Positions 8,171 to 52,541 of a stretch of 64,000 nucleotides of DNA are shown one piece after another; position 1 is the first letter of the stretch, and the number at the start of each line of letters is the position of its first letter. This DNA is from Nannocystis bainbridge. Its GTDB lineage: Bacteria; Myxococcota_A; Polyangia; Nannocystales; Nannocystaceae. The DNA is taken from NCBI RefSeq assembly GCF_028368995.1, contig NZ_JAQNDL010000004.1:128001-192000 (forward strand). The letters are read 5' to 3'. Below the pieces are notes generated by a model. It was not told the DNA's origin. It made no database searches and saw nothing but the letters and a program-made list of their open reading frames with translations. The translations under genes were made by a program, and so were the position numbers.

Positions 8171-8974
8171 ATGGCTGAGCCCGGAACAGCGAGCGCGGCG
8201 CGCGTCCGCCAGGAAGCGAAGGGTCGCGAGCTGCTGGCCGATTCGGGCGTGCTGTGGAGCGCGCTGCCGGTGGAGTGGCCGCGCGAGGCAGAGGGCGGGT
8301 CGGCCGCGGCGCTGCCCGGGTGGGGCTGGCGGGTGCGTCGCTCGCTGGCGGCGCTGCTGGTGCGGCCGCGACGAAGCTTTCAACACGTCCATGAGCCGGT
8401 CGACCACGGAGCGGCGCTGCGGCTGCTGCTGACGGTGCGCTTGCCGTTGTGGGCGGCGCTGCTGGTCGCGCTGGGTGTTGCAGGCCCGACAGGCGCGGCG
8501 CTGGAGGGGATCCCGCTGTTCGACGCGCACCTGACCGAGGCGCTGTCGCTGTGGTTGTTGCTGATGGTGCCGGTCGGGGTGCCGCTGCTTTACGCGAGCC
8601 TGGGGGTCGCCACGCACGTGGCGCTGGCGCTGACCGGCGGGGCGCCGCGCTCGGTGGCGGCGACGATGCGGGCGGTCGGCTACGCGGTGGCGCCGGCGCT
8701 GCTCGGGGTGGCGCTGCTCGACCTGCCGCTGTTCCTCGGGGTGCTGCCGCTGGCGGCGTACCTCGGAGGGCTCGGGGCGCTGACGCTGCTGACGTTCGTG
8801 GTCGCCGGCAACGCGCTGACCGGGACCCACCAGATCCCGGCGATCCGCGGGTTCGTGGTGGCGCTGGTGCCGGCGGTGATGTTCGCGGCGACGCAGGTGC
8901 TGCGCGGGGTGCTGGCGCTCGGCGAGCTGCCGGGCTATGCGCCGCCGCCGGGGCTGCCGTACCTGGTGCCGTGA
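8171..8974 (+). CDS. Yip1-like polytopic membrane protein
   Basis: Five hydrophobic segments follow a soluble N-region. Start chosen at ATG 8171 (MAEPGT), downstream of the overlapping minus-strand MTase gene. Confidence 0.55.
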   Translation: MAEPGTASAARVRQEAKGRELLADSGVLWSALPVEWPREAEGGSAAALPGWGWRVRRSLAALLVRPRRSFQHVHEPVDHGAALRLLLTVRLPLWAALLVALGVAGPTGAALEGIPLFDAHLTEALSLWLLLMVPVGVPLLYASLGVATHVALALTGGAPRSVAATMRAVGYAVAPALLGVALLDLPLFLGVLPLAAYLGGLGALTLLTFVVAGNALTGTHQIPAIRGFVVALVPAVMFAATQVLRGVLALGELPGYAPPPGLPYLVP

Positions 8975-8975
8975 G

Positions 8976-9070
8976 GCTGTCCCTCGTGGCATGTCCGTGG
9001 GGGCATGTCCAAAGGGGCATGGGTTAAACGACATGTCGCCAGGGACAGGGCCCCGGCGACATGTCGTGGA
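8976..9070. repeat. GGCATGTCC/GACATGTCG tandem array (about 6 units) between convergent genes
   Basis: ccctcgtggcatgtccgtgggggcatgtccaaaggggcatgggttaaacgacatgtcgccagggacagggccccggcgacatgtcgtgg. Confidence 0.85.
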
Positions 9071-9092: not shown

Positions 9093-9803
9093 TCAGCCGG
9101 CCTTGGGCGCGGCGGCGGCGTCGGCGGGCACGCCGAGGACCTCCTGGATCGCGGTGTTGAGGCCGGCGAGGTCGGCCGGGGCGACGCCGGAGTACTTCAC
9201 GGCGTTGCGGCCGTCGGCGAACATGACGGTGCGGCTCTTGGTGATGTTGTACCAGCCGTCGAAGGCGTCGTTCTTGCCGCCCTCGTCGGCGGGCACGACC
9301 AGCGGGATGGTGACGCCGAGCTCGGCGCGCAGGGCCTTGACCTTGGCCTCGAGGGCGGCGCGGTCGGCCGTCGGGGTGGTGGCCTTGCCGTCCTTGATGT
9401 CGGTGATGACGGCGAACGCCTTGAGCTTGTCCTCGCCGTACTTCTGGACCAGGGCGTCGAGGTTCTTGAGGTCGTTCTTGAAGGCCTCGTCGTCGATGGT
9501 GCCGACGGCCATGATCTTGGGGCTGCCGCCGAACTTGCAGACCTGGCAGTACTTCTCGCCGCTGTCGCAGTTGACGATCTCGAACGGCTTGAACTTGCCG
9601 CCGACCCCGAGGCCGCTGTCGGCGAGCACGGGCGCCTCGGCGGGCTTGGCCGGGGCGGCCTCGACGGCTTTGTCGGCGGGCGCGGGCGCGGCCGGCTTGG
9701 CGACCTCGGCGGGGGCAGGCTTGGTGGCCGCCTCTCCGCCGCAAGCTGCGGCGAGGATCACGGCGAGGGCGAGGCTCGAGCGAGTGGTGAGCATGGCGGC
9801 CAT
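9093..9803 (-). CDS. hypothetical lipoprotein (LAAACGG lipobox) with a CxxC-containing region
   Basis: Signal MAAMLTTRSSLALAVILAAACGG, a Pro/Ala/Lys-rich linker, then a globular domain with CDSGEKYCQVCKF. Start at 9803 (alternatives at 9794 and 9821). Confidence 0.6.
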   Translation of the reverse strand: MAAMLTTRSSLALAVILAAACGGEAATKPAPAEVAKPAAPAPADKAVEAAPAKPAEAPVLADSGLGVGGKFKPFEIVNCDSGEKYCQVCKFGGSPKIMAVGTIDDEAFKNDLKNLDALVQKYGEDKLKAFAVITDIKDGKATTPTADRAALEAKVKALRAELGVTIPLVVPADEGGKNDAFDGWYNITKSRTVMFADGRNAVKYSGVAPADLAGLNTAIQEVLGVPADAAAAPKAG

Positions 9804-9882
9804 TCTGGCCGCCCGCGCCATGCAGCGCCAGCCGCTCGCCGGCAATTCGCGGCCTGGCGCCGGGCACGCGCGGGGGCCCGGG

Positions 9883-9966
9883 GCCTCGAGTCGCATCGCG
9901 CGGTTCGTGGCGGGCGGGCCTCGATTCGCATCGCGCGGTTCGTGGCGGGCGGGCCTCGATGTGGGG
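9883..9966. repeat. 35-bp tandem direct repeat, about 2.4 copies, in a divergent promoter region
   Basis: gcctcgagtcgcatcgcgcggttcgtggcgggcgg | gcctcgattcgcatcgcgcggttcgtggcgggcgg | gcctcgatgtgggg. Confidence 0.7.
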
Positions 9967-10084
9967 ACCCGGCGGCTCACGCGGGCGATCGCGGGGCTGC
10001 CCCCTTCACGGACACAGCGGTCTCGACGGGTCGGCGCCCGACGATCTCGACGCGACGGTGGACGCGCGGCAGATATTGTGGGGC

Positions 10085-10762: not shown

Positions 10763-10773
10763 TGCGTGCTTTG

Positions 10774-10803
10774 AGGGACATGTCCCGGGGGGCATGTCCC
10801 TCG
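10774..10803. repeat. GGACATGTCC repeat pair between convergent genes
   Basis: gagggacatgtcccggggggcatgtccctc. Confidence 0.8.
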
Positions 10804-10829
10804 ATGCAGGCGCGCGCGGGCGCGGTGGA

Positions 10830-12272
10830 TCAGCCCGGCGGGGGGGTGACGCTCTTGAGCTGGCCGCCGGTCATGTCGCTGTAGACGTAGTGGTCGCCGG
10901 CGACGGGGATGTTCTGCATGGCGGGCACGTTGAGCGGGTCGATCTTCCAGGCCCAGCCGCCCTGGTCGACCAGCCAGACGAAGCCGTCGACGTCGACGCT
11001 GACGCCGATCGGGGTCGAGCACTGGGCGAGGGTGTGCTGAGCGACGAGGGTGCGGGTGGGGACGTCGATCTCGACGAGGCCGCAGGGGCCGTTGGAGGCG
11101 ACCCAGGCGTGGTCGTCGTGGTCGATGGCCATGCCGCGGTGGCAGGCGTTGGTGCCGGGCACGGAGATCCACTGGTTGGTGGCGACGTCGTAGGTCGAGA
11201 CCGGGCCCGAGCAGCCGGCCAGCCACGGGTTGCCGTTGCGGTCGACGGTCATGCCGTAGCTCTGGATGTTGCTGGGCTGGGGGATCCGCGTGAGGGTGAT
11301 CGGGTTCTCGTTGGCGTTGACGCGCACGAGCTCGCCGCGCAGGCCGGTGAACCAGGCGTTGCCGAGCGGGTCGAGGGCGCCGCCGTAAGGGGCGTAGCCG
11401 CTGCCGTCCCAGGCGACGGCCTCGAGCGACTGCTCCATCACGCCGGTGGCGCCGTCGACCCGGACCATGTTGGCAGAGCCGGGCTGGAGGGCGCCGAAGC
11501 CGAGCCAGACCTTCTGGTTCTTGTACGTGCAGGTGGCCTTGTCGTAGTCGCCGATGGTCCAGGTGATGCCGCGCGGGCCCTCGGTGTAACTGCCGGACCA
11601 GTTGGCGTGGACGAGGGTCCAGACGACGCACTCGTCGCTGCCCCAGGGGAGGATGTCGGCGACGCCGGTGGAGGTGGTGATCTGGCCGTCACCGTTGGCG
11701 TCGATGCAGTCGGCGATGTTGGCGGCGACGGCGGTGGAGCGACCGGTGCCGCGGGCGTTGACGACGACGAAGCGGCCGTCGCCGGAGACGGCGGTGCGGG
11801 ACACGCTCTCGGTGGCGCCGCTGGGGCCGGTCAGGTAGCGCGCCTCCTCGACGAGGGTGCGGGTGTTGATCTTGGAGACGAGGCCGTCGCTGGTGGCGGG
11901 GATCCAGATGAAGCTCTCGTCGATGTCCATGTCGCCGGCGCAGCCAGTGCCGCCGTCGGGCGTGACGCCGAGGTCGAACTTGGGGCCGCCGTTGGTGGTC
12001 ACGGAGGTGACCGTGGGGTTGCTGGTGGTCGGCGGGTCGCTGCTGGCGCTCTCGGTCTGACTGGCAGTGCCGTCGGTGCCCTCGGTGGCGCTGGCCGTAC
12101 CCTGGGTCGGGTCGGTCATGGTGGTCTCGGGCAGGGTGAGGCTGCCGACGCTGGCCGTGACCGTGGTCGGGGCGGTGGCAGTGGCGCTGGCCGAGTCGGC
12201 GCGACCGCTGTCACCGCAACCGACGAGGAGACAGACGGCCATGGACGCGCCCGAAAACCGAGGGGAAACCAT
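10830..12272 (-). CDS. beta-propeller (NHL/Vgb-like) lipoprotein
   Basis: MAVCLLVGCGDSG lipobox, Thr/Ser linker, then repeated G-x-T-x-D-x-x-G-N-x-W blades (YGMTVDRNGNPWLAG, MAIDHDDHAWVAS, VSVDVDGFVWLVD). The 1177-aa track ORF is chimeric; only the C-terminal 480 codons are real. Confidence 0.65.
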   Translation of the reverse strand: MVSPRFSGASMAVCLLVGCGDSGRADSASATATAPTTVTASVGSLTLPETTMTDPTQGTASATEGTDGTASQTESASSDPPTTSNPTVTSVTTNGGPKFDLGVTPDGGTGCAGDMDIDESFIWIPATSDGLVSKINTRTLVEEARYLTGPSGATESVSRTAVSGDGRFVVVNARGTGRSTAVAANIADCIDANGDGQITTSTGVADILPWGSDECVVWTLVHANWSGSYTEGPRGITWTIGDYDKATCTYKNQKVWLGFGALQPGSANMVRVDGATGVMEQSLEAVAWDGSGYAPYGGALDPLGNAWFTGLRGELVRVNANENPITLTRIPQPSNIQSYGMTVDRNGNPWLAGCSGPVSTYDVATNQWISVPGTNACHRGMAIDHDDHAWVASNGPCGLVEIDVPTRTLVAQHTLAQCSTPIGVSVDVDGFVWLVDQGGWAWKIDPLNVPAMQNIPVAGDHYVYSDMTGGQLKSVTPPPG

Positions 12273-12770
12273 GGGGCGATGAACGCACGGTTCCACGCAT
12301 GAGGGCAAGTCCCCGACGGCGAGGGAACCCCGGGGGGTCGGTGCGAGCGTCGGGGGAGCGCCGAGGGCCTCGCATGCGGGGGTCCAGCGCGTCGCGGCGA
12401 ACGCGGGAGCGAGCGAGGCGCGGGAGTGACAGCGGAGGCATGGGGTCGGGCGAATGCGCGGAGCGGCTCGATCGGGTCGTGTGAGGGTCGTGGGGGCGTC
12501 GCGGGTCGATGGTGAATGCAGGGAGCACGGGCGGGCGATGCTTCGCGGGGGCGGCGTCGGGGGCGCGTCGAGACTGCGGGGATCTCCGCAGGGACTGCTG
12601 CCGGCGTGAGGGGGCGCGCGGGGAGAACACCCGCAGGACGGTCGGAGAGCCCCGCGGCTGGAGAAGCGGGGGACAGCGACCCGGGGCGGCTCGAGTCGAT
12701 GGCGGGCCCGGAGGCGCGAGGCGGGGGCGCCGGCGAGGTCATGCATTTCCGGCGCGGCGCGGGAGGCGGG

Positions 12771-14420
12771 ATGGGTATCATCGCGCCGATGTCGAGCTCT
12801 CGCCGCTCCTTCCTCGCGCTCACGGGGCTCTGTGGCGCCGAGGCGCTCCTCCACGGCCCGCCCGCGGCGTGGGCCGGGCAGCCGCCGAGCCGGATCCCGG
12901 CGCCCAGGTCGGCGCCCGCGAGCGCGGACGCGGGCATGGCCCTGCTGGCGGCGAGCCGCCTGCTGGCCGACGAGCACCTGCTGCGCACGGCCCTGGCGGC
13001 GGCGACGAAGGCGGGGGCGAGCTACGCGGACGCGCGCCTGGTGTCGATGCGGCGCGAGCGGGTCGGCGTGCGCGACGATCACGTGAGCGGGATCGGTCGC
13101 AGCGAGGATTACGGCGTCGGTCTGCGGGTGATCGCGGACGGCGGCTGGGGCTTCGCGGCGACGGCGGAGCGCAGCGCGAAGGCGGTCGAGGGGATCGCCC
13201 GGACCGCGGTGGCGATGGCCCGCCAGAGCGCGCTGCTGATGCCGCAGCCGGTGACGCTGGCGCCGGCGCCGGTGCTGCAGGGCGGGTGGGTGTCGCCGTT
13301 CGAGATCGATCCGTTCTCGGTCGCGCCGGCCGAGAAAGCGGAGCTGCTGCTGGCGGCGGCCCGGGCCGCGCTGGCGGTGCCCGGGGTGGCGCACGTGGAC
13401 GCGAACGTGGCCTGCGTGCGTGAGGAGAAGCTGGTGATGACGAGCGAGGGCTCGCGGGTGCACCAGATCTTCTTCCGCGTGGTCCCGGGGCTGACGGCGA
13501 CGGCGATCGATCGCCGGCGCGGTCGCTTCGCCGGCCGCGACCACGAGGTGGCGGCGATGCTGGCCGGGTGGGAGCACGTGAAGGCGGCCGACCTGGTGGG
13601 CAGCGCGCCGAAGATCGCCGAGGAGGCGCTGCAGAAGCTGCACGCGGCGCCGGTCGAGCCGGGCAAGAAGCACGCGATCCTGGCGCCGTCGAACCTGTGG
13701 CTGACGATCCACGAGAGCATCGGCCACTCGACGGAGCTCGACCGGGCGCTCGGCTACGAGGCGAACTACGCCGGGACGAGCTTCCTCGGGCCGGACAAGG
13801 CGGGCAAGTTCACGATCGGCAGCGAGATCGTCAACCTCGCGGCCGACCGCACGCAGCCGGGCGGGCTGGCGACGACGGCGTGGGACGACGAGGCGGTGGC
13901 GAGCCAGCGCTGGGACCTGGTGAAGAAGGGGAAATTCGTCGGCTGGCAGACCACGCGCGACCTGGCGGCCGCGGCCGGGGAACAGGCCAGCCGCGGCTGC
14001 AGCTACGCCGACAGCTACGCCAGCGTGCCGTTCCAGCGCATGCCGAACGTGAGCCTGCAGCCGGGCAGCGAGGGCTACACGACCGAGGACCTGATCGGCG
14101 CGACGGAGGACGGCGTGCTGATCACGGGCCGCGGCAGCTGGTCGATCGATCAGCAGCGCTACAACTTCCAGTTCTCGGGCCAGTTCTTCTGGGAGATCAA
14201 GAAGGGGCGGCTGACGCGGCCGCTGCGGGACGTGGCGTATCAGGCCAACACGGTCGAATTCTGGAGCTCGTGTGACATGCTCGGAGGGACAGACACGTAC
14301 CGCCTCGGCGGCAGCATGAGCGACGGCAAGGGTGAGCCGTCGCAGAGCAACTCGGTCAGCCACGGGTGCCCGCCGGCGCGCTTCGTCGTCAACATCCTCA
14401 ACACCGGGGGTGACAAGTGA
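12771..14420 (+). CDS. tldD: TldD-family metalloprotease with a twin-arginine (Tat) signal peptide
   Basis: HESIGHSTELD HExxxH motif and TldD N-terminal block SYADARL...GVGLRV. N-terminus MGIIAPMSSSRRSFLALTGLCGAEALLHGPPAAWAG matches S-R-R-x-F-L. GGGAGG lies 4 nt before ATG 12771 (alternative ATG at 12741). Confidence 0.85.
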   Translation: MGIIAPMSSSRRSFLALTGLCGAEALLHGPPAAWAGQPPSRIPAPRSAPASADAGMALLAASRLLADEHLLRTALAAATKAGASYADARLVSMRRERVGVRDDHVSGIGRSEDYGVGLRVIADGGWGFAATAERSAKAVEGIARTAVAMARQSALLMPQPVTLAPAPVLQGGWVSPFEIDPFSVAPAEKAELLLAAARAALAVPGVAHVDANVACVREEKLVMTSEGSRVHQIFFRVVPGLTATAIDRRRGRFAGRDHEVAAMLAGWEHVKAADLVGSAPKIAEEALQKLHAAPVEPGKKHAILAPSNLWLTIHESIGHSTELDRALGYEANYAGTSFLGPDKAGKFTIGSEIVNLAADRTQPGGLATTAWDDEAVASQRWDLVKKGKFVGWQTTRDLAAAAGEQASRGCSYADSYASVPFQRMPNVSLQPGSEGYTTEDLIGATEDGVLITGRGSWSIDQQRYNFQFSGQFFWEIKKGRLTRPLRDVAYQANTVEFWSSCDMLGGTDTYRLGGSMSDGKGEPSQSNSVSHGCPPARFVVNILNTGGDK

Positions 14421-15766
14421 GCGCGACGTCTCCGCTGAGCCCGGCCGAGGCGCGGGCGCTGGTCAAGTCGGCGCTGGCGGCCGCGAGCTTCGAGGACGTG
14501 AGCCTGCGGGTATCGGCCCGCCGTTCGGCGTACCTGCGGTTCGCCGCGGGCGCGCCGACGACGTCGGGCGAGGCGGCGCGCTTCGAGGTGGCGGTGACGG
14601 CGGCGAAGGACGGCCGGGTGGCGACGGTGTCGGGCACGGGCCGCGACACGGCGTCGCTGCAAGCGCTGGTGCGCGAGGCGGAGGCGCTGGCCAAGCTGGC
14701 GCCGCAGGACCCGGAGCACGAGCCGCCGCTGGGGCCGCAGCAGTACGCGAAGGTGGCGGCCCGTGACGCGAAGACGGCCGAGGTCGGGCCCGAGGGCCGC
14801 ACCGAGGTGGTGGCGCGGGTGCTGAAGGTCGCGCGCGAGGCCAAGCTGATCGCGTCGGGGTTGGTCGAGCACGAGGACGCGGTGACGGTGCTTGCAAATC
14901 GCAAGGGGCTGTTCGCGCTGCACGCGGCGACCGAGGCGTCGCTGACGACGACGATGCGCACGGCCGACGGCAAGGGCAGCGGCTGGGCCGGTGGGTCGTC
15001 GTACCGGCTGGCCGACCTCGACGGGCCGACGCTGGCGCGGCGAGCCGCCGACAAGGCGACGATGTCGAGCCAGGGCGCGGAGACGCTGGCGCCGGGGGCC
15101 TACACGGTGGTGCTCGAGGCGCAGGCGGTGGCCGACCTGCTGGGCTTTTTGGTGTCGACGCTGCAGGCCCGCGCGGCCGACGAGGGCCGCAGCTTCTTCA
15201 GCCGGCCCGGCGGCAACGCGATCGGCGAGGCGCTGTTCGACCCGCGGGTGACGCTGCGCTCCGATCCGGCCGACGCGCGCTTTCCTTCGAGCCCGTTCGC
15301 GGGCGACGGGTTGCCGCTGCCGACGACGACGTGGATCGATCACGGGATCCTCAAGGCGCTGGCCTACAGCCGGTTCTGGGCCCGCAAGCAGGGCAAGTCG
15401 CCGCTGCCGGGGCCGCGCTCGATCTTCCTCGCGGCCGCCGATCCGGGCGAGGGCAAGGACCTGCTCGAGCTGATCCGCGGGGTCGAGCGCGGGGTGCTGG
15501 TGACGCGGTTCTTTTACAACCGCATGCTCGATCCGCGGCAGATCCTGGCGACGGGGCTGACCCGCGACGGCACGTTCCTGATCGAGCAAGGGAAGGTGGC
15601 GCGGCCGGTGAAGAACATGCGCTACAACGACAGCCCGGCGGCGCTGCTGAAGAACCTGGTGGCTCTCGGCAAGCCCGAGCGCACGGCCGGCGACGGGATG
15701 GTCACGGTGGTGCCGCCGCTGGTGGCCAAAGACTTCCACTTCGCCAGCGTCAGCGACGCGGTGTAA
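14417..15766 (+). CDS. pmbA: PmbA/TldE-family protease partner, no signal peptide
   Basis: GTG start overlaps the tldD stop (GTGA); PmbA_TldD family C-terminal domain. Confidence 0.8.
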   Translation: MSATSPLSPAEARALVKSALAAASFEDVSLRVSARRSAYLRFAAGAPTTSGEAARFEVAVTAAKDGRVATVSGTGRDTASLQALVREAEALAKLAPQDPEHEPPLGPQQYAKVAARDAKTAEVGPEGRTEVVARVLKVAREAKLIASGLVEHEDAVTVLANRKGLFALHAATEASLTTTMRTADGKGSGWAGGSSYRLADLDGPTLARRAADKATMSSQGAETLAPGAYTVVLEAQAVADLLGFLVSTLQARAADEGRSFFSRPGGNAIGEALFDPRVTLRSDPADARFPSSPFAGDGLPLPTTTWIDHGILKALAYSRFWARKQGKSPLPGPRSIFLAAADPGEGKDLLELIRGVERGVLVTRFFYNRMLDPRQILATGLTRDGTFLIEQGKVARPVKNMRYNDSPAALLKNLVALGKPERTAGDGMVTVVPPLVAKDFHFASVSDAV

Positions 15767-15772
15767 ATTCGG

Positions 15773-15900
15773 GTGTCCTCGCGGACATGTCCGGAGGGGC
15801 ATGTTTGCGGGGGCATGTTCGTTCGGGCATGTCTGTTCGGGCATGTCCGTGCGAGCATGTGAGACCACGCGCCGATCGGCTATGCTCGCGGGCATGTTCG
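15773..15900. repeat. GGCATGT(C/T) tandem array (about 7 units) between pmbA and the acetyltransferase
   Basis: gcggacatgtccggaggggcatgtttgcgggggcatgttcgttcgggcatgtctgttcgggcatgtccgtgcgagcatgtgagacc ... gggcatgttcgtg. Confidence 0.85.
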
Positions 15901-16129
15901 TGATCTCGAGCGCGCTGTTCTTCACGGCGAGCCTCGGCGCGAGGCGGCTCAGGCGGAAGCGGGTGCAGTGCGACCCGGGCGGCTGCGCGCTGCGGTTCTG
16001 AGGCTGAGGGGTCGACGCGGCGCGAGCGGCAGCCGTCGGTGCGGGGCGAGCGGAGGCAGGTTCGGTGCGAGCCGTGCCGCGCCGACCCGTGATTGCGGCG
16101 AGGCCGGGCGGCGGGCAGACTGCGCGCCC

Positions 16130-16756
16130 ATGCAAAATTACTTCGAGAGCCCGTTCAAGGGCCGACTGCTGGCGGAGCAGGTCACCAACCGCAACATCGT
16201 CGTCGGCCGCTTCAGCTACTACTCGGGGTATTACCACGGGCACTCGTTCGACGACTGCGCGCGGTTTTTGATGCCGGACCGCGACGACGTCGACAAGTTG
16301 ATCGTCGGCAGCTTCTGCTCGATCGGCAGCGGCGCGGCCTTCATCATGGCGGGCAACCAGGGCCACCGCAGCGACTGGGTGTCGACGTTCCCGTTCCACT
16401 ACATGCCCGAGGTCGCGGCCTTCGCCGGGGCCCGCGACGGGTTCCGCGGCGCCGGTGACACGGTGATCGGCAGCGACGTGTGGATCGGGTCCGAGGCGAT
16501 GATCATGCCGGGGGTCCGGGTCGGGCACGGGGCGGTGATCGGCAGCCGGGCCCTGGTGGCCAAGGACGTCGAGCCGTACACGATCGTCGGCGGCAACCCG
16601 GCCCGGCCGATCCGCAAGCGCTTCGCCGACGAGCAGATCGCCATGCTGCTCGAGATGGCGTGGTGGGACTGGCCGCTCGAGCGGCTCCACGAGGCGATGC
16701 CGCTGCTGTGCGACGGCGACATCGCGGCGCTGTATCGGTTCTGGAAGGCCGCGTGA
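16130..16756 (+). CDS. Vat-family xenobiotic/streptogramin-A O-acetyltransferase (hexapeptide repeat)
   Basis: [31 protein letters not shown]... is the classic Vat/CatB N-terminus. Left-handed beta-helix repeats ([27 protein letters not shown]) and the C-terminal WDWP motif are present. Confidence 0.8.
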
Positions 16757-16763
16757 GCGCGGC

Positions 16764-17165
16764 TCAGTCGCGGTGGGGCAGGACGACGCGGATCCGCAGG
16801 GCGCCCTCGTCGTCGCGCCGCAGCGCGTAGGTCGAGCGCTCGAGGCCGACCTCGCGGCCGTCCTTGTCGACGAAGGGCCAGCACACGCGCACCAGCACGA
16901 CGCGGTCGCCGACCCACTCGCGCGACTCGACCTCGGGGCGCGTCATCGTCACCCCGCGGTCGAGGTACTGCGCCCGCGCGGCCGCGAAGAAGCGCTCGAT
17001 CTCCTCGCGCCGGGCCACCGCCTGCGCCCCGGAGTCGGCCAGCACGAAGGCCGGCGTCTCGTACAGCGTCGCCACCGTGAGGGCGTCGCCTTCCACCAGC
17101 GCCCGCCCGAGGAGGTTCAGGAACGCGTCGACCTCGCGGTCTCGCTCGGGGTTCGTCGTGGTCAT
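16764..17165 (-). CDS. SnoaL/NTF2-like small protein
   Basis: 133-aa ORF from ATG 17165 (MTTTNPERDREVDAFLN...) with an alpha+beta cone pattern; convergent with the acetyltransferase. Confidence 0.5.
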   Translation of the reverse strand: MTTTNPERDREVDAFLNLLGRALVEGDALTVATLYETPAFVLADSGAQAVARREEIERFFAAARAQYLDRGVTMTRPEVESREWVGDRVVLVRVCWPFVDKDGREVGLERSTYALRRDDEGALRIRVVLPHRD

Positions 17166-17340: not shown

Positions 17341-17460
17341 GGGCGTGTCCGCGAGGACATGAGGGGGAGGTGCGAAAGGACATGTCGTGGTGGACATGTC
17401 GTGATAGACATGTCGTGATGAACATGCCTGATAGGGCATGTCTGAGAAGACGTTCTCGTG
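17341..17460. repeat. GGACATGTCG tandem array (about 7 units, 14-bp period)
   Basis: aggacatgaggggg|aggtgcgaa|aggacatgtcgtggt|ggacatgtcgtgat|agacatgtcgtgat|gaacatgcctgat|agggcatgtctgag. Confidence 0.85.
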
Positions 17461-17475
17461 ACGATGCGTTCTGCG

Positions 17476-17800
17476 GCCGGGGGCGGGCGGCTTCACGGCT
17501 CGCCGAGACCGAGCCTGGCGGATTCTTCCGGGCAGGCGAAGCGGCGAAGGGGACGGCTTCACGACTCTCGGGGCCGGGCCTGGCTGAATCTTCGGCAGCT
17601 GAAGCGGGCGAAGCGGGCGGCTTCACGGCTCGGCGCCGGGCCTGGCGGGTTCGTCGGGCACGCGAAGCGGCTGACTTCACGGCTCGGTGGGGCCGGGCCT
17701 GGCGTTCTACGGCCGGGCGGAGCGGGCGACTTCACGGCTCGGCGGGGCTGGTCCTTGCGGGTTCGTCCGGGCAGGCGAAGCGGGCGAAGCGGCGGGTGAG
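17476..17800. repeat. degenerate 58-66 bp tandem direct repeat, 5 copies, spanning the 3' end of the sigma/anti-sigma gene and its downstream region
   Basis: Units begin cttcacggctcgg(c/t)g...ggccgggcctggcg...gcgaagcgggcga at about 17478, 17541, 17607, 17664 and 17722. Confidence 0.65.
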
Positions 17801-19033
17801 CACCGAGTCGGGCAGGCGGGCGGTCAGGCGGGCGGCGGCGGCGGCGGCGTCGGCCGGGCGGCCTTGCAGGCACAGCAGCTCGATCGCGGCGGCCTCGCGG
17901 GCGTCGACGAGGGCGCCGCGCGGGAACTCGCGGGCGTGGCTGTCGAGCAGCAGGGCGGCGGCGGTCGGGTCGCGGGCGTCGAGGCGAGCGCGGGCGCGGT
18001 CGAGCAGGCCGACCTCGCGGGCGAGGTCGTCGCGGGCCCGCGCGCGGGCGGCTGGCCCGGGGGACAGGTCGGATCCCGTGGCTGTCCCTGCGGACAGGTC
18101 TCGCGCGGCTGTCTCTGCGGACAGGTCTCGCGCGGCTATCTCTGCGGACAGGTTCGACGCTGCTGTCTCTTCGGACAGGTCGGAGGGCGCAGGGTCCTTC
18201 GCGGCGGGCTCGTGGGCACGGTCCTTCGCGTCTGTCTCGTGGGACAGGTCCGAGCGCGCCGGGGCGCCGCGGCCGGGGGCCTGGCGCGGGGCGGCGACGA
18301 CGACCGCGGCGGTCCCGGCGACCAGGAGGGTCGTCATCACCCCGGTGCGGGCGGCGGTCCAGGCGGCGGCGACGGTGGCGAGCTTGCCGTGGCCGAACAG
18401 CGGGACGATCGCGGCCCAGTTGCGCGGGGCGGCCTCGGGCGGGGGCTCGGCGCGGCGGCGGTCGGCGGCGATCTCGGCGACCAGCGGCTCGGGGCCGGCG
18501 GCCAGCTCGAGCAGGCGGGCGCGGGCCAGGCGGAGCCGCGAGTAGACGGTGTTGAGCGGCAGCTCGAGCTCGGCGGCGATCTCGGGGCCGTTCATGCCGA
18601 GCAGCTCGGTCATCTCCCACACCTCGCGGGCGCCGCGGGGCAGGCCGGCGAGCAGGCGCTCGACCTGGCGGGCGGCGTCGTGGCGCTCGTGCGGGGCCTC
18701 GCCGACGTGGCCGGTGAGGTCGCCGAGAGCGGCGATCCGGCGGGTGCGGCGGGCGACGCCGCGGTGCCAGTGCGAGGCGACGCGGCGGGTGACGCCGTAC
18801 AGCCAGGCGCGCGCGGACACCTGGTAGTGGACCTGCTCGAAGCGGCGGTAGGCGGTGAGGAAGACGTCCTGGATCACGTCGTCGCGGGCGGCCGCCGGGA
18901 CGCCGAAGTAGCGGGCGGCGGACCAGACGAAGTTGAACTCGCGGTCGTAGATGGCGCGGAAGCGCGCTTCGCGGTCGGTGGCGAGCAGCATGGGGCCGGA
19001 GGTGGTGTCCCCGGTCGAGATGGATTCCGTCAT
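17732..19033 (-). CDS. ECF sigma factor fused to a C-terminal TM segment and an anti-sigma-like periplasmic domain with 9-aa tandem repeats
   Basis: Sigma-70 region 2 (FRAIYDREFNFVWSAARYFG...DDVIQDVFLTAYRRF) and region 4 (EVWEMTELLGMNGPEIAAELELPLNTVYSRLRLAR), then TM TTLLVAGTAAVVVAAP, then (DLSAETAAR)n encoded by 27-bp repeats at 18050-18250, then a helical C-domain. Start ATG 19031-19033 with GGAGA 9 nt upstream. The Arg/Pro-rich N-terminal extension in the ORF track was rejected. Confidence 0.7.
   Translation of the reverse strand: MTESISTGDTTSGPMLLATDREARFRAIYDREFNFVWSAARYFGVPAAARDDVIQDVFLTAYRRFEQVHYQVSARAWLYGVTRRVASHWHRGVARRTRRIAALGDLTGHVGEAPHERHDAARQVERLLAGLPRGAREVWEMTELLGMNGPEIAAELELPLNTVYSRLRLARARLLELAAGPEPLVAEIAADRRRAEPPPEAAPRNWAAIVPLFGHGKLATVAAAWTAARTGVMTTLLVAGTAAVVVAAPRQAPGRGAPARSDLSHETDAKDRAHEPAAKDPAPSDLSEETAASNLSAEIAARDLSAETAARDLSAGTATGSDLSPGPAARARARDDLAREVGLLDRARARLDARDPTAAALLLDSHAREFPRGALVDAREAAAIELLCLQGRPADAAAAAARLTARLPDSVLTRRFARFACPDEPARTSPAEP
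18050..18250. repeat. 27-bp coding tandem repeat (ctgcggacaggtctcgcgcggctgtct)n inside the sigma/anti-sigma CDS; a CATG-less variant of the GGACATGTCC family
   Basis: About 6 copies, each holding GGACAGGTC and its inverted partner GCTGTC. It translates on the minus strand to S/DLSAETAAR repeats. Confidence 0.75.
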
Positions 19034-20106
19034 CGCGGGTCTCCGAGGTGCAATTCGAGGCCGAGGAGCAGGCGCAGGCTGACCGGGGCGCTGTTGAAGA
19101 GGCCGACCGGCTCGACCGGGTCGGCGAGGTCGAAGCGGGGCGAGGTCAGGCGGACGAGGCCCTGGGCGGCGAGCAGGAGGCCGAGGCGGGGGTGAAAGCG
19201 CCAGGTGGCGCCGGCGGACACGAGCGCGGCCGCCCACAGGCCGGTGGCGGCGCGGGCGCCAGGGCCACGGCCCTCGCCGCGCAGGCCGCCGAGCTCGAGG
19301 CCGCCGCACAGCGGGAACTCGAAATCGCCGCGAAACAGGCGCGCGCAGCCGCGGACGCCGCCGCCGAGCAGGTAGACGCGGACCGCGTGGGGCGGGCGCG
19401 ACTCGGTCTGGGGCACCAGGTGGAGGCCGTGGAACTCGAGGCGGGCCCGCCGCCACAGCACGCCGAGCGCGAGATCGACGGTCGCGGTGGGCGCCGGCAG
19501 GGTGCCGACCTCGAGGCCGCCGGCGAGGCGGAGCAGCATCCCGGGACCGCGCCGGCGCGGCGGTGAGGGCGGGGCCAGCGGGGCCTCGGCGGTGACGGCC
19601 GGGTCGGGCGGCGGCGGCGATGGGGCGGGCGCGGGCGGTTCGAGGCTGGCCTCGGGGCGTGGTGCGAGATCGGGCGCCGGGTCGATCGCGGCGTCGCCAG
19701 GTACCGGGTCGGGCGCGAGCTCGCCGGCTTCGGGCGCTTCGAGGTCGACCGGTTCGCCGCGGGCGGCGACCGTGGGGTCGAGCGCGAGGGCGGCCAGCAG
19801 CGCCGCGGCGTCGACAAGGGCGTCGCAGCGGCGGGCGCCGAGGCGGCGGGCCTGCGTGTGGCCGGCGACGGTGAGGCGCAGGTCGAGGCGGAAATGGGTC
19901 GCGCCGGACCGCTCGACGCGGCCGTCCAGCGCGAGCTCGTCGGGGCCCGGGTCGCGGCCGAGGCGGCGGGCGATCGCCGTGGCGAGCGCGTCCCGGTCGG
20001 GGCAGCCCGCCGGGGCCTGCCACACGGCCGCGGACGCGGACGGGGGCGGGGGCACCTGGAGCGCGAGCGCTGCGGCGAGGAGCGCGGACGGCATCGACGG
20101 CTGCAT
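19030..20106 (-). CDS. hypothetical secreted protein translationally coupled (ATGA overlap) to the downstream ECF sigma gene
   Basis: Signal-like MQPSMPSALLAAALALQ and a Pro/Ala-rich middle. The C-terminal half has alternating hydrophobic pattern suggestive of beta-strands. The stop TGA overlaps the sigma ATG. Confidence 0.45.
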   Translation of the reverse strand: MQPSMPSALLAAALALQVPPPPSASAAVWQAPAGCPDRDALATAIARRLGRDPGPDELALDGRVERSGATHFRLDLRLTVAGHTQARRLGARRCDALVDAAALLAALALDPTVAARGEPVDLEAPEAGELAPDPVPGDAAIDPAPDLAPRPEASLEPPAPAPSPPPPDPAVTAEAPLAPPSPPRRRGPGMLLRLAGGLEVGTLPAPTATVDLALGVLWRRARLEFHGLHLVPQTESRPPHAVRVYLLGGGVRGCARLFRGDFEFPLCGGLELGGLRGEGRGPGARAATGLWAAALVSAGATWRFHPRLGLLLAAQGLVRLTSPRFDLADPVEPVGLFNSAPVSLRLLLGLELHLGDPR

Positions 20107-20212
20107 CCTAGCGCAGGAGGTGTCGGCCGGCTCCGGACCGATCGCGTCGCGCGGCGTGCGCTCGGCGAGAGGGCGCGCGGGCTCGACCGGGCGGCCGATG
20201 AGCATGACCGAA

Positions 20213-20326
20213 CGGACATGTCTCGAAGGACGTGTCCGATCGGTCATGCTCGATCGCGGGGTCGCATGTCCTCGGGGACAGGCGCCCCGCGATTCCGAGG
20301 ATCGCTCGCATGTCCTCAGGGACAGG
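20213..20326. repeat. GGACATGTC/GCATGTCC tandem array downstream of the peroxidase gene
   Basis: cggacatgtctcgaaggacgtgtccgatcggtcatgctcgatcgcggggtcgcatgtcctcggggacaggcgccccgcgattccgaggatcgctcgcatgtcctcagggacagg. Confidence 0.85.
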
Positions 20327-28432: not shown

Positions 28433-28500
28433 GGGACATGTCGTGGCGGGCATGTCCGATGCGGCATGTTCGAGTGGACATGTTCGATGGGACATGGCCT
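28433..28500. repeat. GGACATGT(C/T) tandem array (5 units) abutting the left inverted-repeat arm
   Basis: gggacatgtcgtggcgggcatgtccgatgcggcatgttcgagtggacatgttcgatgggacatgg. Confidence 0.85.
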
Positions 28501-32006: not shown

Positions 32007-32070
32007 GTGTCCTCGAGGACATGTCTCCGGGAGCATGTCCTCGAACCCATGTCCCCGGGGACATGCCCCG
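32007..32070. repeat. GGACATGTC tandem array (about 5 units) between pcm and nadE
   Basis: tcgaggacatgtctccgggagcatgtcctcgaacccatgtccccggggacatgccccgggggcc. Confidence 0.85.
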
Positions 32071-42979: not shown

Positions 42980-43033
42980 CGGGACATGCTCTCCAGGACA
43001 TGCTCGGACGGGCATGTCCTATTGAGCATGTGC
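42980..43033. repeat. GGACATGCTC/GGCATGTCC tandem array between convergent genes
   Basis: gggacatgctctccaggacatgctcggacgggcatgtcctattgagcatgtgcg. Confidence 0.8.
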
Positions 43034-52464: not shown

Positions 52465-52541
52465 CTGTCCGTTCGGGCATGCGCGAACAGACAGGTCCTC
52501 CGGGACATGCCCCATGCGGCATGTCCCCGGGGGCATGTCAG
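52465..52541. repeat. GGGCATGC/GGACATGCCC/GGCATGTCC tandem array between convergent genes
   Basis: ctgtccgttcgggcatgcgcgaacagacaggtcctccgggacatgccccatgcggcatgtccccgggggcatgtcag. Confidence 0.85.

Follow-up and report, generated by a model that had tools for sequence, protein, structure and literature searches.

TldD/E is usually regarded as a cytoplasmic protease with housekeeping and peptide-maturation functions, and in Escherichia coli the two genes concerned, tldD and pmbA, are unlinked. On its own, E. coli TldD shows no activity; it requires TldE (PmbA), and the active site is shut inside the heterodimer that the two form (PMC5810440). The enzyme was treated as intracellular in that structural paper and in a review of the proteases of ribosomally synthesised and post-translationally modified peptides. 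The Tat system moves proteins that are already folded, and hydrogenases, formate dehydrogenases and PaoABC are established cases of hitchhiker export, in which subunits without a signal of their own are carried across with a partner (PMC10924467; PMC4273604). Here, we describe a pair of overlapping genes encoding a TldD-like and a PmbA-like protein in a 64,000-nucleotide stretch of high-GC DNA from a Nannocystis-like myxobacterium (contig NZ_JAQNDL010000004.1, positions 128,001 to 192,000; hereafter the window, with positions counted from its first nucleotide). Only the TldD-like protein bears a predicted twin-arginine translocation (Tat) signal, and the two proteins probably form an extracytoplasmic TldD/TldE (MEROPS M103) heterodimeric metalloprotease that would be co-exported by Tat hitchhiking.

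The best match to the window pair in the PDB, in both sequence and fold, is the E. coli TldD/TldE enzyme (M103, 5NJ5), yet the identity is only ~20%. The same three-domain fold is found in both subunits of the two enzymes, and in each, only the TldD-type subunit has HExxxH and the E..D clamp residues, the partner being non-catalytic. The window TldD-like protein differs from E. coli TldD in its predicted N-terminal Tat signal, in a linker of ~20 residues and in the presence of Asp instead of Cys454. Its gene is adjacent to and overlaps that of its partner, unlike the E. coli genes, and the E. coli enzyme is cytoplasmic, whereas the window pair would be exported. The hitchhiking complexes HybOC (hydrogenase-2), FdnGH and PaoABC resemble the window pair in carrying a signal on one subunit only; these are redox enzymes with complex cofactors whose co-export has been demonstrated, whereas the window pair would be a mononuclear metalloprotease whose co-export we infer. 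A third point of comparison is provided by signal-less pairs of the same subfamily (45-48% identity; loci L050, L052, L055, L057 and L063-L079, from Actinomycetota, Saccharibacteria and some Alphaproteobacteria). Their gene order and 4-nt overlap are those of the window pair; unlike it, they have a Cys third metal ligand and no signal, and are presumably cytoplasmic.

In the 8 million full texts searched, TldD or PmbA was paired with twin-arginine terms only in an unrelated hot-spring metagenome study, and no open-access paper linked either protein to Tat; the review of the TldD/TldE family by Vobruba et al. (2022) could mention it. A Tat signal on TldD-like proteins is already visible to annotation pipelines, and what appears to be new is the proposed combination of a TldD/E protease with Tat hitchhiking.

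Identity of the Two Proteins

The TldD-like gene lies in an open reading frame (ORF) at 12516-14420 (+), which holds MGIIAPMSSSRRSFLALTGLCGAEALLHGPPAAWAG counted from ATG 12771. This codon is one of two candidate starts; it would give MGIIAPMSSSRR... and is preceded by a Shine-Dalgarno-like GGGAGG with a spacer of 4 nt. The other, ATG 12789, would give MSSSRR... and is the start used for most homologues and for the closest protein match, a 'TldD/PmbA family protein' of Nannocystis sp. ILAH1 (P0001, 95% identity). Both codons precede the RR pair, and the choice between them is therefore immaterial to the finding.

All three PmbA_TldD domains (PF01523, PF19290 and PF19289, with gathering cut-offs of 20.9-22 bits) were detected above their gathering scores in both proteins, with 50.5, 34.9 and 93.1 bits in the TldD-like and 28.5, 22.7 and 122.8 bits in the PmbA-like protein, respectively. 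Against the NCBIfam equivalogs, the scores fell far short of the cut-offs for TldD (NF008006, 66.4 vs. 513 bits; NF040952, 110.4 vs. 635 bits) and PmbA (NF008268, 35.1 vs. 438 bits). Both proteins thus belong to the TldD/PmbA family as distant members and are not orthologous to E. coli TldD and PmbA, and the roles in microcin B17 (MccB17) and CcdA processing that an initial annotation of this DNA had mentioned for E. coli are not simply transferable.

A sequence search of the PDB matched the TldD-like protein to E. coli TldD (5NJ5, E 1e-17) and the PmbA-like protein to the TldE/PmbA structures 1VL4 and 1VPB (E ~1e-16), the latter being BT3649 of B. thetaiotaomicron. The AlphaFold2 (AF2) model of the TldD-like protein had a mean pLDDT of 70.7, with a confident N-terminal domain, a patchy C-terminal half and values of <50 over residues 1-44. 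Foldseek analysis of this model returned 5NJC_C, an E. coli TldD chain, as the top match (E 7.5e-29, target TM-score 0.70), and 16/16 significant matches were TldD or TldE structures. As modelled, the TldD-like protein has the TldD/E fold.

Predicted Tat Signal of the TldD-Like Protein

The motif S-R-R-S-F-L is present at 12798-12815 and is followed in order by the hydrophobic region ALTGLCGAEALL, by HGPPAAWA and by G. A twin-arginine motif of the S/T-R-R-x-F-L-K type, a hydrophobic region and an A-x-A site were therefore all found, with one Glu interrupting the hydrophobic region. The initial annotation had reported this motif, the hydrophobic region and the AWA site on the TldD-like protein, and their sequence and coordinates were confirmed.

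R5, R6 and F8 were invariant in an alignment of 23 sequences, and RR and F were also invariant in a second alignment. The RR motif was present in 101 of the top 120 homologues (61-95% identity), in the strict form [ST]RRxF[LIVM] in 91 of those, so a chance match is not the explanation. The RR-less homologues among the 120 begin further in than the rest, apparently owing to later start calls. The Tat profile TIGR01409 was passed, at about its cut-off, by 34/49 orthologue N-termini from several phyla (best E 4.3e-8), and the Plesiocystis pacifica homologue is named 'Twin-arginine translocation pathway signal' by NCBI. It is very likely, judging from these N-terminal sequences, that the signal is a genuine Tat signal at the level of the family.

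The Signal-Less Partner and the Gene Junction

The PmbA-like protein lacks a signal peptide and the HExxxH motif and is free of cysteine. Its GTG start at 14417 overlaps the TGA stop of the TldD-like gene (14418-14420), and this GTGA overlap is consistent with translational coupling of the two genes. An in-frame TGA is located one codon upstream of the GTG, which makes a signal or a longer N-terminus impossible. The overlap and the absence of a signal from the partner, both of which had been proposed initially, are borne out by these positions.

In an alignment of 72 partner proteins, nothing precedes the first conserved helix except, in some, a short polar extension, and the window protein aligns from residue 1 with the other 71. 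The hydropathy of these N-termini was uninformative, as the first conserved helix is itself hydrophobic. A possible hidden Tat motif, 'ARRSAYL' (residues 34-40 of the PmbA-like protein), was rejected; it is within domain 1, is unconserved and has no hydrophobic region after it. No promoter-like sites and no convincing terminator were identified in scans of 12200-16900.

Distribution of the One-Signal Pair Across Phyla

A scan of one genome per species returned at least 600 matching stretches, of which 80 loci with 41-80% identity to the query were kept. These were from Myxococcota, Gammaproteobacteria and Alphaproteobacteria, and from Gemmatimonadota, Acidobacteriota, Ignavibacteria/Chlorobiota/Kapaibacteria, Bacteroidota, Verrucomicrobiota, Planctomycetota, Actinomycetota and Saccharibacteria, so that the related gene pairs were drawn from at least eight phyla. 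The 80 loci and the window together contained 83 TldD-like genes, the N-termini of which were classed using our own scripts. A Tat-type signal was present in 57/83, including one R-K variant and one without a nearby standard start codon. There was no signal in 21/83, all from Actinomycetota, Saccharibacteria or Alphaproteobacteria, and the N-terminus could not be determined in the remaining 5/83, being cut off or unreadable. No signal was found on the partner in any of the loci, including those that were Tat-positive.

The TldD-like gene was adjacent to and upstream of the PmbA-like gene in 79/80 loci. Where a Tat-positive locus had a partner, the partner start was at -4 to +30 nt from the stop in 45/55 cases, with an overlap of 4 or 1 nt in 25. 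The pairing and the start-stop overlap were equally conserved in the Tat-positive and Tat-negative loci. The one-signal arrangement is conserved across phyla, and the window copy is an ordinary member of a widespread family and not a special locus. A library of 50%-identity cluster representatives extended the family to 921 clusters at E <= 1e-30 and 3,478 at E <= 1e-10; the distant clusters were mostly signal-less, with ~480 residues and a Cys ligand.

Two loci had additional copies. In L042 (Gemmatimonadota) there were two tandem TldD-like/PmbA-like pairs, and in L059 (Luteimonas deserti) two Tat-signal TldD-like genes were followed by a single PmbA-like gene.

Active Site and Third Metal Ligand

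The catalytic motif of the TldD-like protein aligns with residues H262-D272 of E. coli TldD, including Glu270 and Asp272; the roles of these residues and of HExxxH in the E. coli enzyme have been described (Ghilarov et al. 2017, PMC5810440). HExxxH was present in 83/83 TldD-like genes and in 0/79 window-homologous partners. The only string of the HExxxH type among the partners, HEGLPH in L073, is outside the homologous region.

The third metal ligand of the window protein is predicted to be Asp, compared with Cys454 in E. coli TldD. The phmmer alignment being off by 1-2 residues at this point, D-G-K was matched to C-G-K by the conserved motif. Ghilarov et al. (PMC5810440) noted that Asp may stand in for Cys as the third ligand, 'e.g., in Gemmatimonas sp.'. 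Among the 83 TldD-like genes, those with a Tat signal had 51 Asp and 6 Cys, those without a signal had 0 Asp and 21 Cys, and those with an undeterminable N-terminus had 5 Asp and 0 Cys. A set of 175 sequences, comprising the full-length genes among the 83 and the full-length cluster representatives, gave 57 Tat/Asp, 11 Tat/Cys, 89 no-Tat/Cys and 1 no-Tat/Asp, with a further 5 Asp proteins of unreadable N-terminus. The sole no-Tat/Asp protein was P0129, and its gene call is possibly truncated. The Cys-to-Asp ligand change is almost confined to Tat-signal forms.

Parsimony on a crude neighbour-joining tree of the 175 proteins gave ~5 changes of Tat state and ~3 changes of ligand, with a root that had no signal and a Cys ligand. 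On this tree, Asp arose at least twice, always within a Tat-targeted lineage, and the association of Tat with Asp rests on few evolutionary events, given how few state changes there are. A Cys thiolate ligand would plausibly be a liability in an oxidising compartment, hence the Asp; the distribution of the Asp ligand fits export into such a compartment.

Proposed Export Model

Tat hitchhiking is the most economical reading of these data, as the one-subunit signal is conserved across phyla and the two genes are tightly coupled. The TldD-like protein would bind its metal and pair with the PmbA-like protein in the cytoplasm, forming a closed hollow shell as in E. coli TldD/E. The Tat translocase would then recognise the single RR signal, and the folded heterodimer would cross the inner membrane with the PmbA-like subunit hitchhiking. 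Signal peptidase I would cleave after A-W-A. The most likely role of the complex in the periplasm would be sequence-independent cleavage of unfolded peptides, for instance during peptide scavenging or turnover.

Several points weigh against export of the heterodimer. The signal in the window is sub-threshold, with 12.7 bits against a cut-off of 16.7 for TIGR01409 and 13.3 against 22.7 for PF10518, and the low hidden Markov model scores may stem from the Glu inside the hydrophobic region, an unusual residue there. To the initial description of a near-consensus motif it should be added that the window signal is below these cut-offs, while 34/49 orthologue N-termini pass TIGR01409. Such scores and the break in the hydrophobic region, along with a helix that AF2 placed over residues 5-18 with low confidence, could also be accounted for by an RR region that does not function as a cleaved signal in this genome, either because it has decayed, is an uncleaved anchor or is left untranslated by an internal start, which would leave the pair in the cytoplasm or tethered to the membrane. 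We consider this improbable. Nannocystis relatives at 80-95% identity retain the motif and A-W-A, the next in-frame ATG is ~45 codons downstream and would delete a conserved segment, and the conservation at the protein level across phyla indicates that the region is translated.

Other points bear on the need for a heterodimer. Homodimers of TldE/PmbA crystallise alone (1VL4, 1VPB, 3QTD), and an archaeal (Sulfolobus) TldD homodimer was reported to be active (cited in PMC5810440); a heterodimer is thus not strictly required. These reports, and the absence of targeting information from the PmbA-like protein itself, would also fit a TldD-like protein that leaves through Tat by itself and works singly or as a homodimer; the PmbA-like protein would then remain cytoplasmic, perhaps with a passing role in assembly or in holding the protease inactive until it is exported. 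Such solitary export is unlikely, though less so than a non-functional signal, since E. coli TldD is inactive without TldE (PMC5810440), many Tat systems co-export such partners (PMC10924467), and pairing and overlap that are conserved regardless of Tat state point to a stoichiometric partner.

The Tat state changed only ~5 times on the crude tree, and the many loci are therefore not independent observations. Partner cysteines were lower in the Tat-positive loci (mean 1.1 vs. 2.4), a weak difference that is confounded by phylogeny. Finally, the proposed periplasmic function is a guess, and no dedicated substrate is indicated, as no conserved neighbouring gene was found across the 80 loci.

Co-export of the heterodimer remains the preferred reading. 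Beyond the window, we put forward more tentatively, and with some doubt, that a multi-phylum TldD/E clade may work outside the cytoplasm, exported to the periplasm on one Tat signal after the heterodimer has assembled and taken up its metal, and that the repeated Cys-to-Asp change, which occurs only in Tat-targeted lineages, may be an adaptation to the oxidising compartment. To our knowledge, no other protease and few non-redox enzymes are exported by hitchhiking. If true, a pair of the window type would be the first protease exported in this way and among the few non-redox enzymes, extending Tat hitchhiking beyond redox enzymes. Periplasmic peptidases would also gain a new class, present in heterotrophs of soil and water such as Myxococcota, Gemmatimonadota, Acidobacteriota, Bacteroidota and Verrucomicrobiota, and the Cys-to-Asp change would be a natural test of metal-site adaptation to the periplasm.

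Table 1. Features of the TldD-like/PmbA-like locus and its surroundings, in window coordinates.
Feature	Position	Strand	Basis or remark
TldD-like catalytic subunit gene	12771..14420, alternative start ATG 12789 (543 aa)	+	Pfam, PDB, AF2/Foldseek
Predicted twin-arginine signal peptide MSSSRRSFLALTGLCGAEALLHGPPAAWA, predicted cleavage after AWA	12789..12875	+	Homologue conservation
Catalytic motif HESIGHSTELD: HExxxH plus Glu and Asp (clamp-lysine binders in E. coli TldD)	13710..13742	+	Aligned to E. coli HEAVGHGLEGD
D-G-K, counterpart by motif of E. coli C454-G-K456	14322..14330	+	Conserved motif
Gene junction: TGA 14411-14413 (PmbA frame), CAA, GTG 14417	14411..14420	+	Sequence reading
PmbA/TldE-like non-catalytic partner gene, 449 aa	14417..15766	+	Three PmbA_TldD domains, PDB matches
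Array of ~7 units x 14 nt, core GRCATGTY	15774..15867	.	Starts 8 nt past the pmbA-like stop
Lipoprotein, 480 aa, lipobox LLVGC, beta-propeller-like region; not in module	10830..12272	-	Weak Vgb_lyase match
Type B chloramphenicol acetyltransferase (CatB/xenobiotic acetyltransferase family); not in module	16130..16756	+	NF000490

Neighbouring Genes

The initial annotation suggested that the pair belongs to a locus that would handle peptides or antibiotic-like molecules outside the cytoplasm, together with a Vat-type acetyltransferase and a propeller lipoprotein with blades resembling Vgb-type lyases. The genes do adjoin in the window, the acetyltransferase is truly a xenobiotic acetyltransferase of the CatB type, and the lipoprotein has a faint Vgb_lyase-like match. 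The assignment to Vat was not upheld, as the protein scored 412.4 bits with the CatB model NF000490 (cut-off 350) and 180.2 with the Vat model NF000311 (cut-off 300). The match of the lipoprotein to Vgb_lyase (PF24684) was weak, at 23.8 bits with a gathering score of 50.

The surroundings make such a locus highly improbable. CatB has no signal peptide, is separated from the pmbA-like gene by a 364-bp spacer with a repeat array, and is missing from the ILAH1 locus, where the TldD-like protein is 95% identical, and from all 80 related loci. The propeller lipoprotein gene is transcribed divergently from the pair; a homologue, 90.6% identical, was found only in ILAH1, and in the other loci none is beside the pair. 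No third gene family was found to travel with the pair when the flanking ORFs of the window were compared by BLAST with the 80 loci. When 1,738 flanking ORFs were clustered all against all, the recurrent families were promiscuous ones only (histidine kinase in 8 loci, Ser/Thr kinase in 7). The comparison of neighbours with ILAH1 and the 80 loci thus yielded no evidence tying the window pair to antibiotic handling. Of the initial interpretation, the signal on one subunit stands as a feature conserved across phyla, and the locus with acetyltransferase and lipoprotein, the former lacking from ILAH1, does not.

The CatB segment is a strain-specific replacement flanked by the 14-nt repeat array, in a locus that is otherwise 91% identical in ILAH1. 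Window positions 15809-16763 (955 bp, with CatB) correspond to a non-homologous 1,148 bp with two small ORFs in ILAH1 (L081 9025-10172).

A further predicted lipoprotein is encoded at 9093-9980 (-). It has a CxxC motif (CQVC) and is possibly thioredoxin-like, with no Pfam or NCBIfam match. In L001-L004 (Nannocystaceae and related Myxococcota), the TldD-like gene has a homologue of this CxxC lipoprotein upstream of it; in the window, the two are separated by the propeller gene and another ORF.

Repeats in the Window

Arrays of 3-7 tandem 14-nt units with the GRCATGTY core were present at 8964-9035, 10767-10824, 15774-15867, 17379-17440 and 20199-20256, and further arrays were found at 28437-28496, 32020-32065, 42985-43030 and 52506-52537. 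The five sites within the surveyed 8-21 kb are all intergenic. The spaced pattern CATG-N10-CATG-N10-CATG was observed 17 times in the window, with 0.00 expected from shuffles. The arrays could represent a REP-like element or an array of regulator-binding sites, and they yield spurious 'CP.GH' ORF translations.

A long ORF at 17732-20023 (-) has an N-terminal part like that of an extracytoplasmic function (ECF) sigma-70 factor and a C-terminal extension; its ILAH1 homologue matches Sigma70_r2 and r4_2. A tandem repeat of 27 nt (9 aa), SDLSxExAA-like, lies within the extension at 18074-18250. Downstream of the 14-nt array at 17379-17440, a 31-nt direct repeat occurs five times at 17475-17783, as part of a longer unit at 54-66 nt spacing (families D4, D5 and D11).

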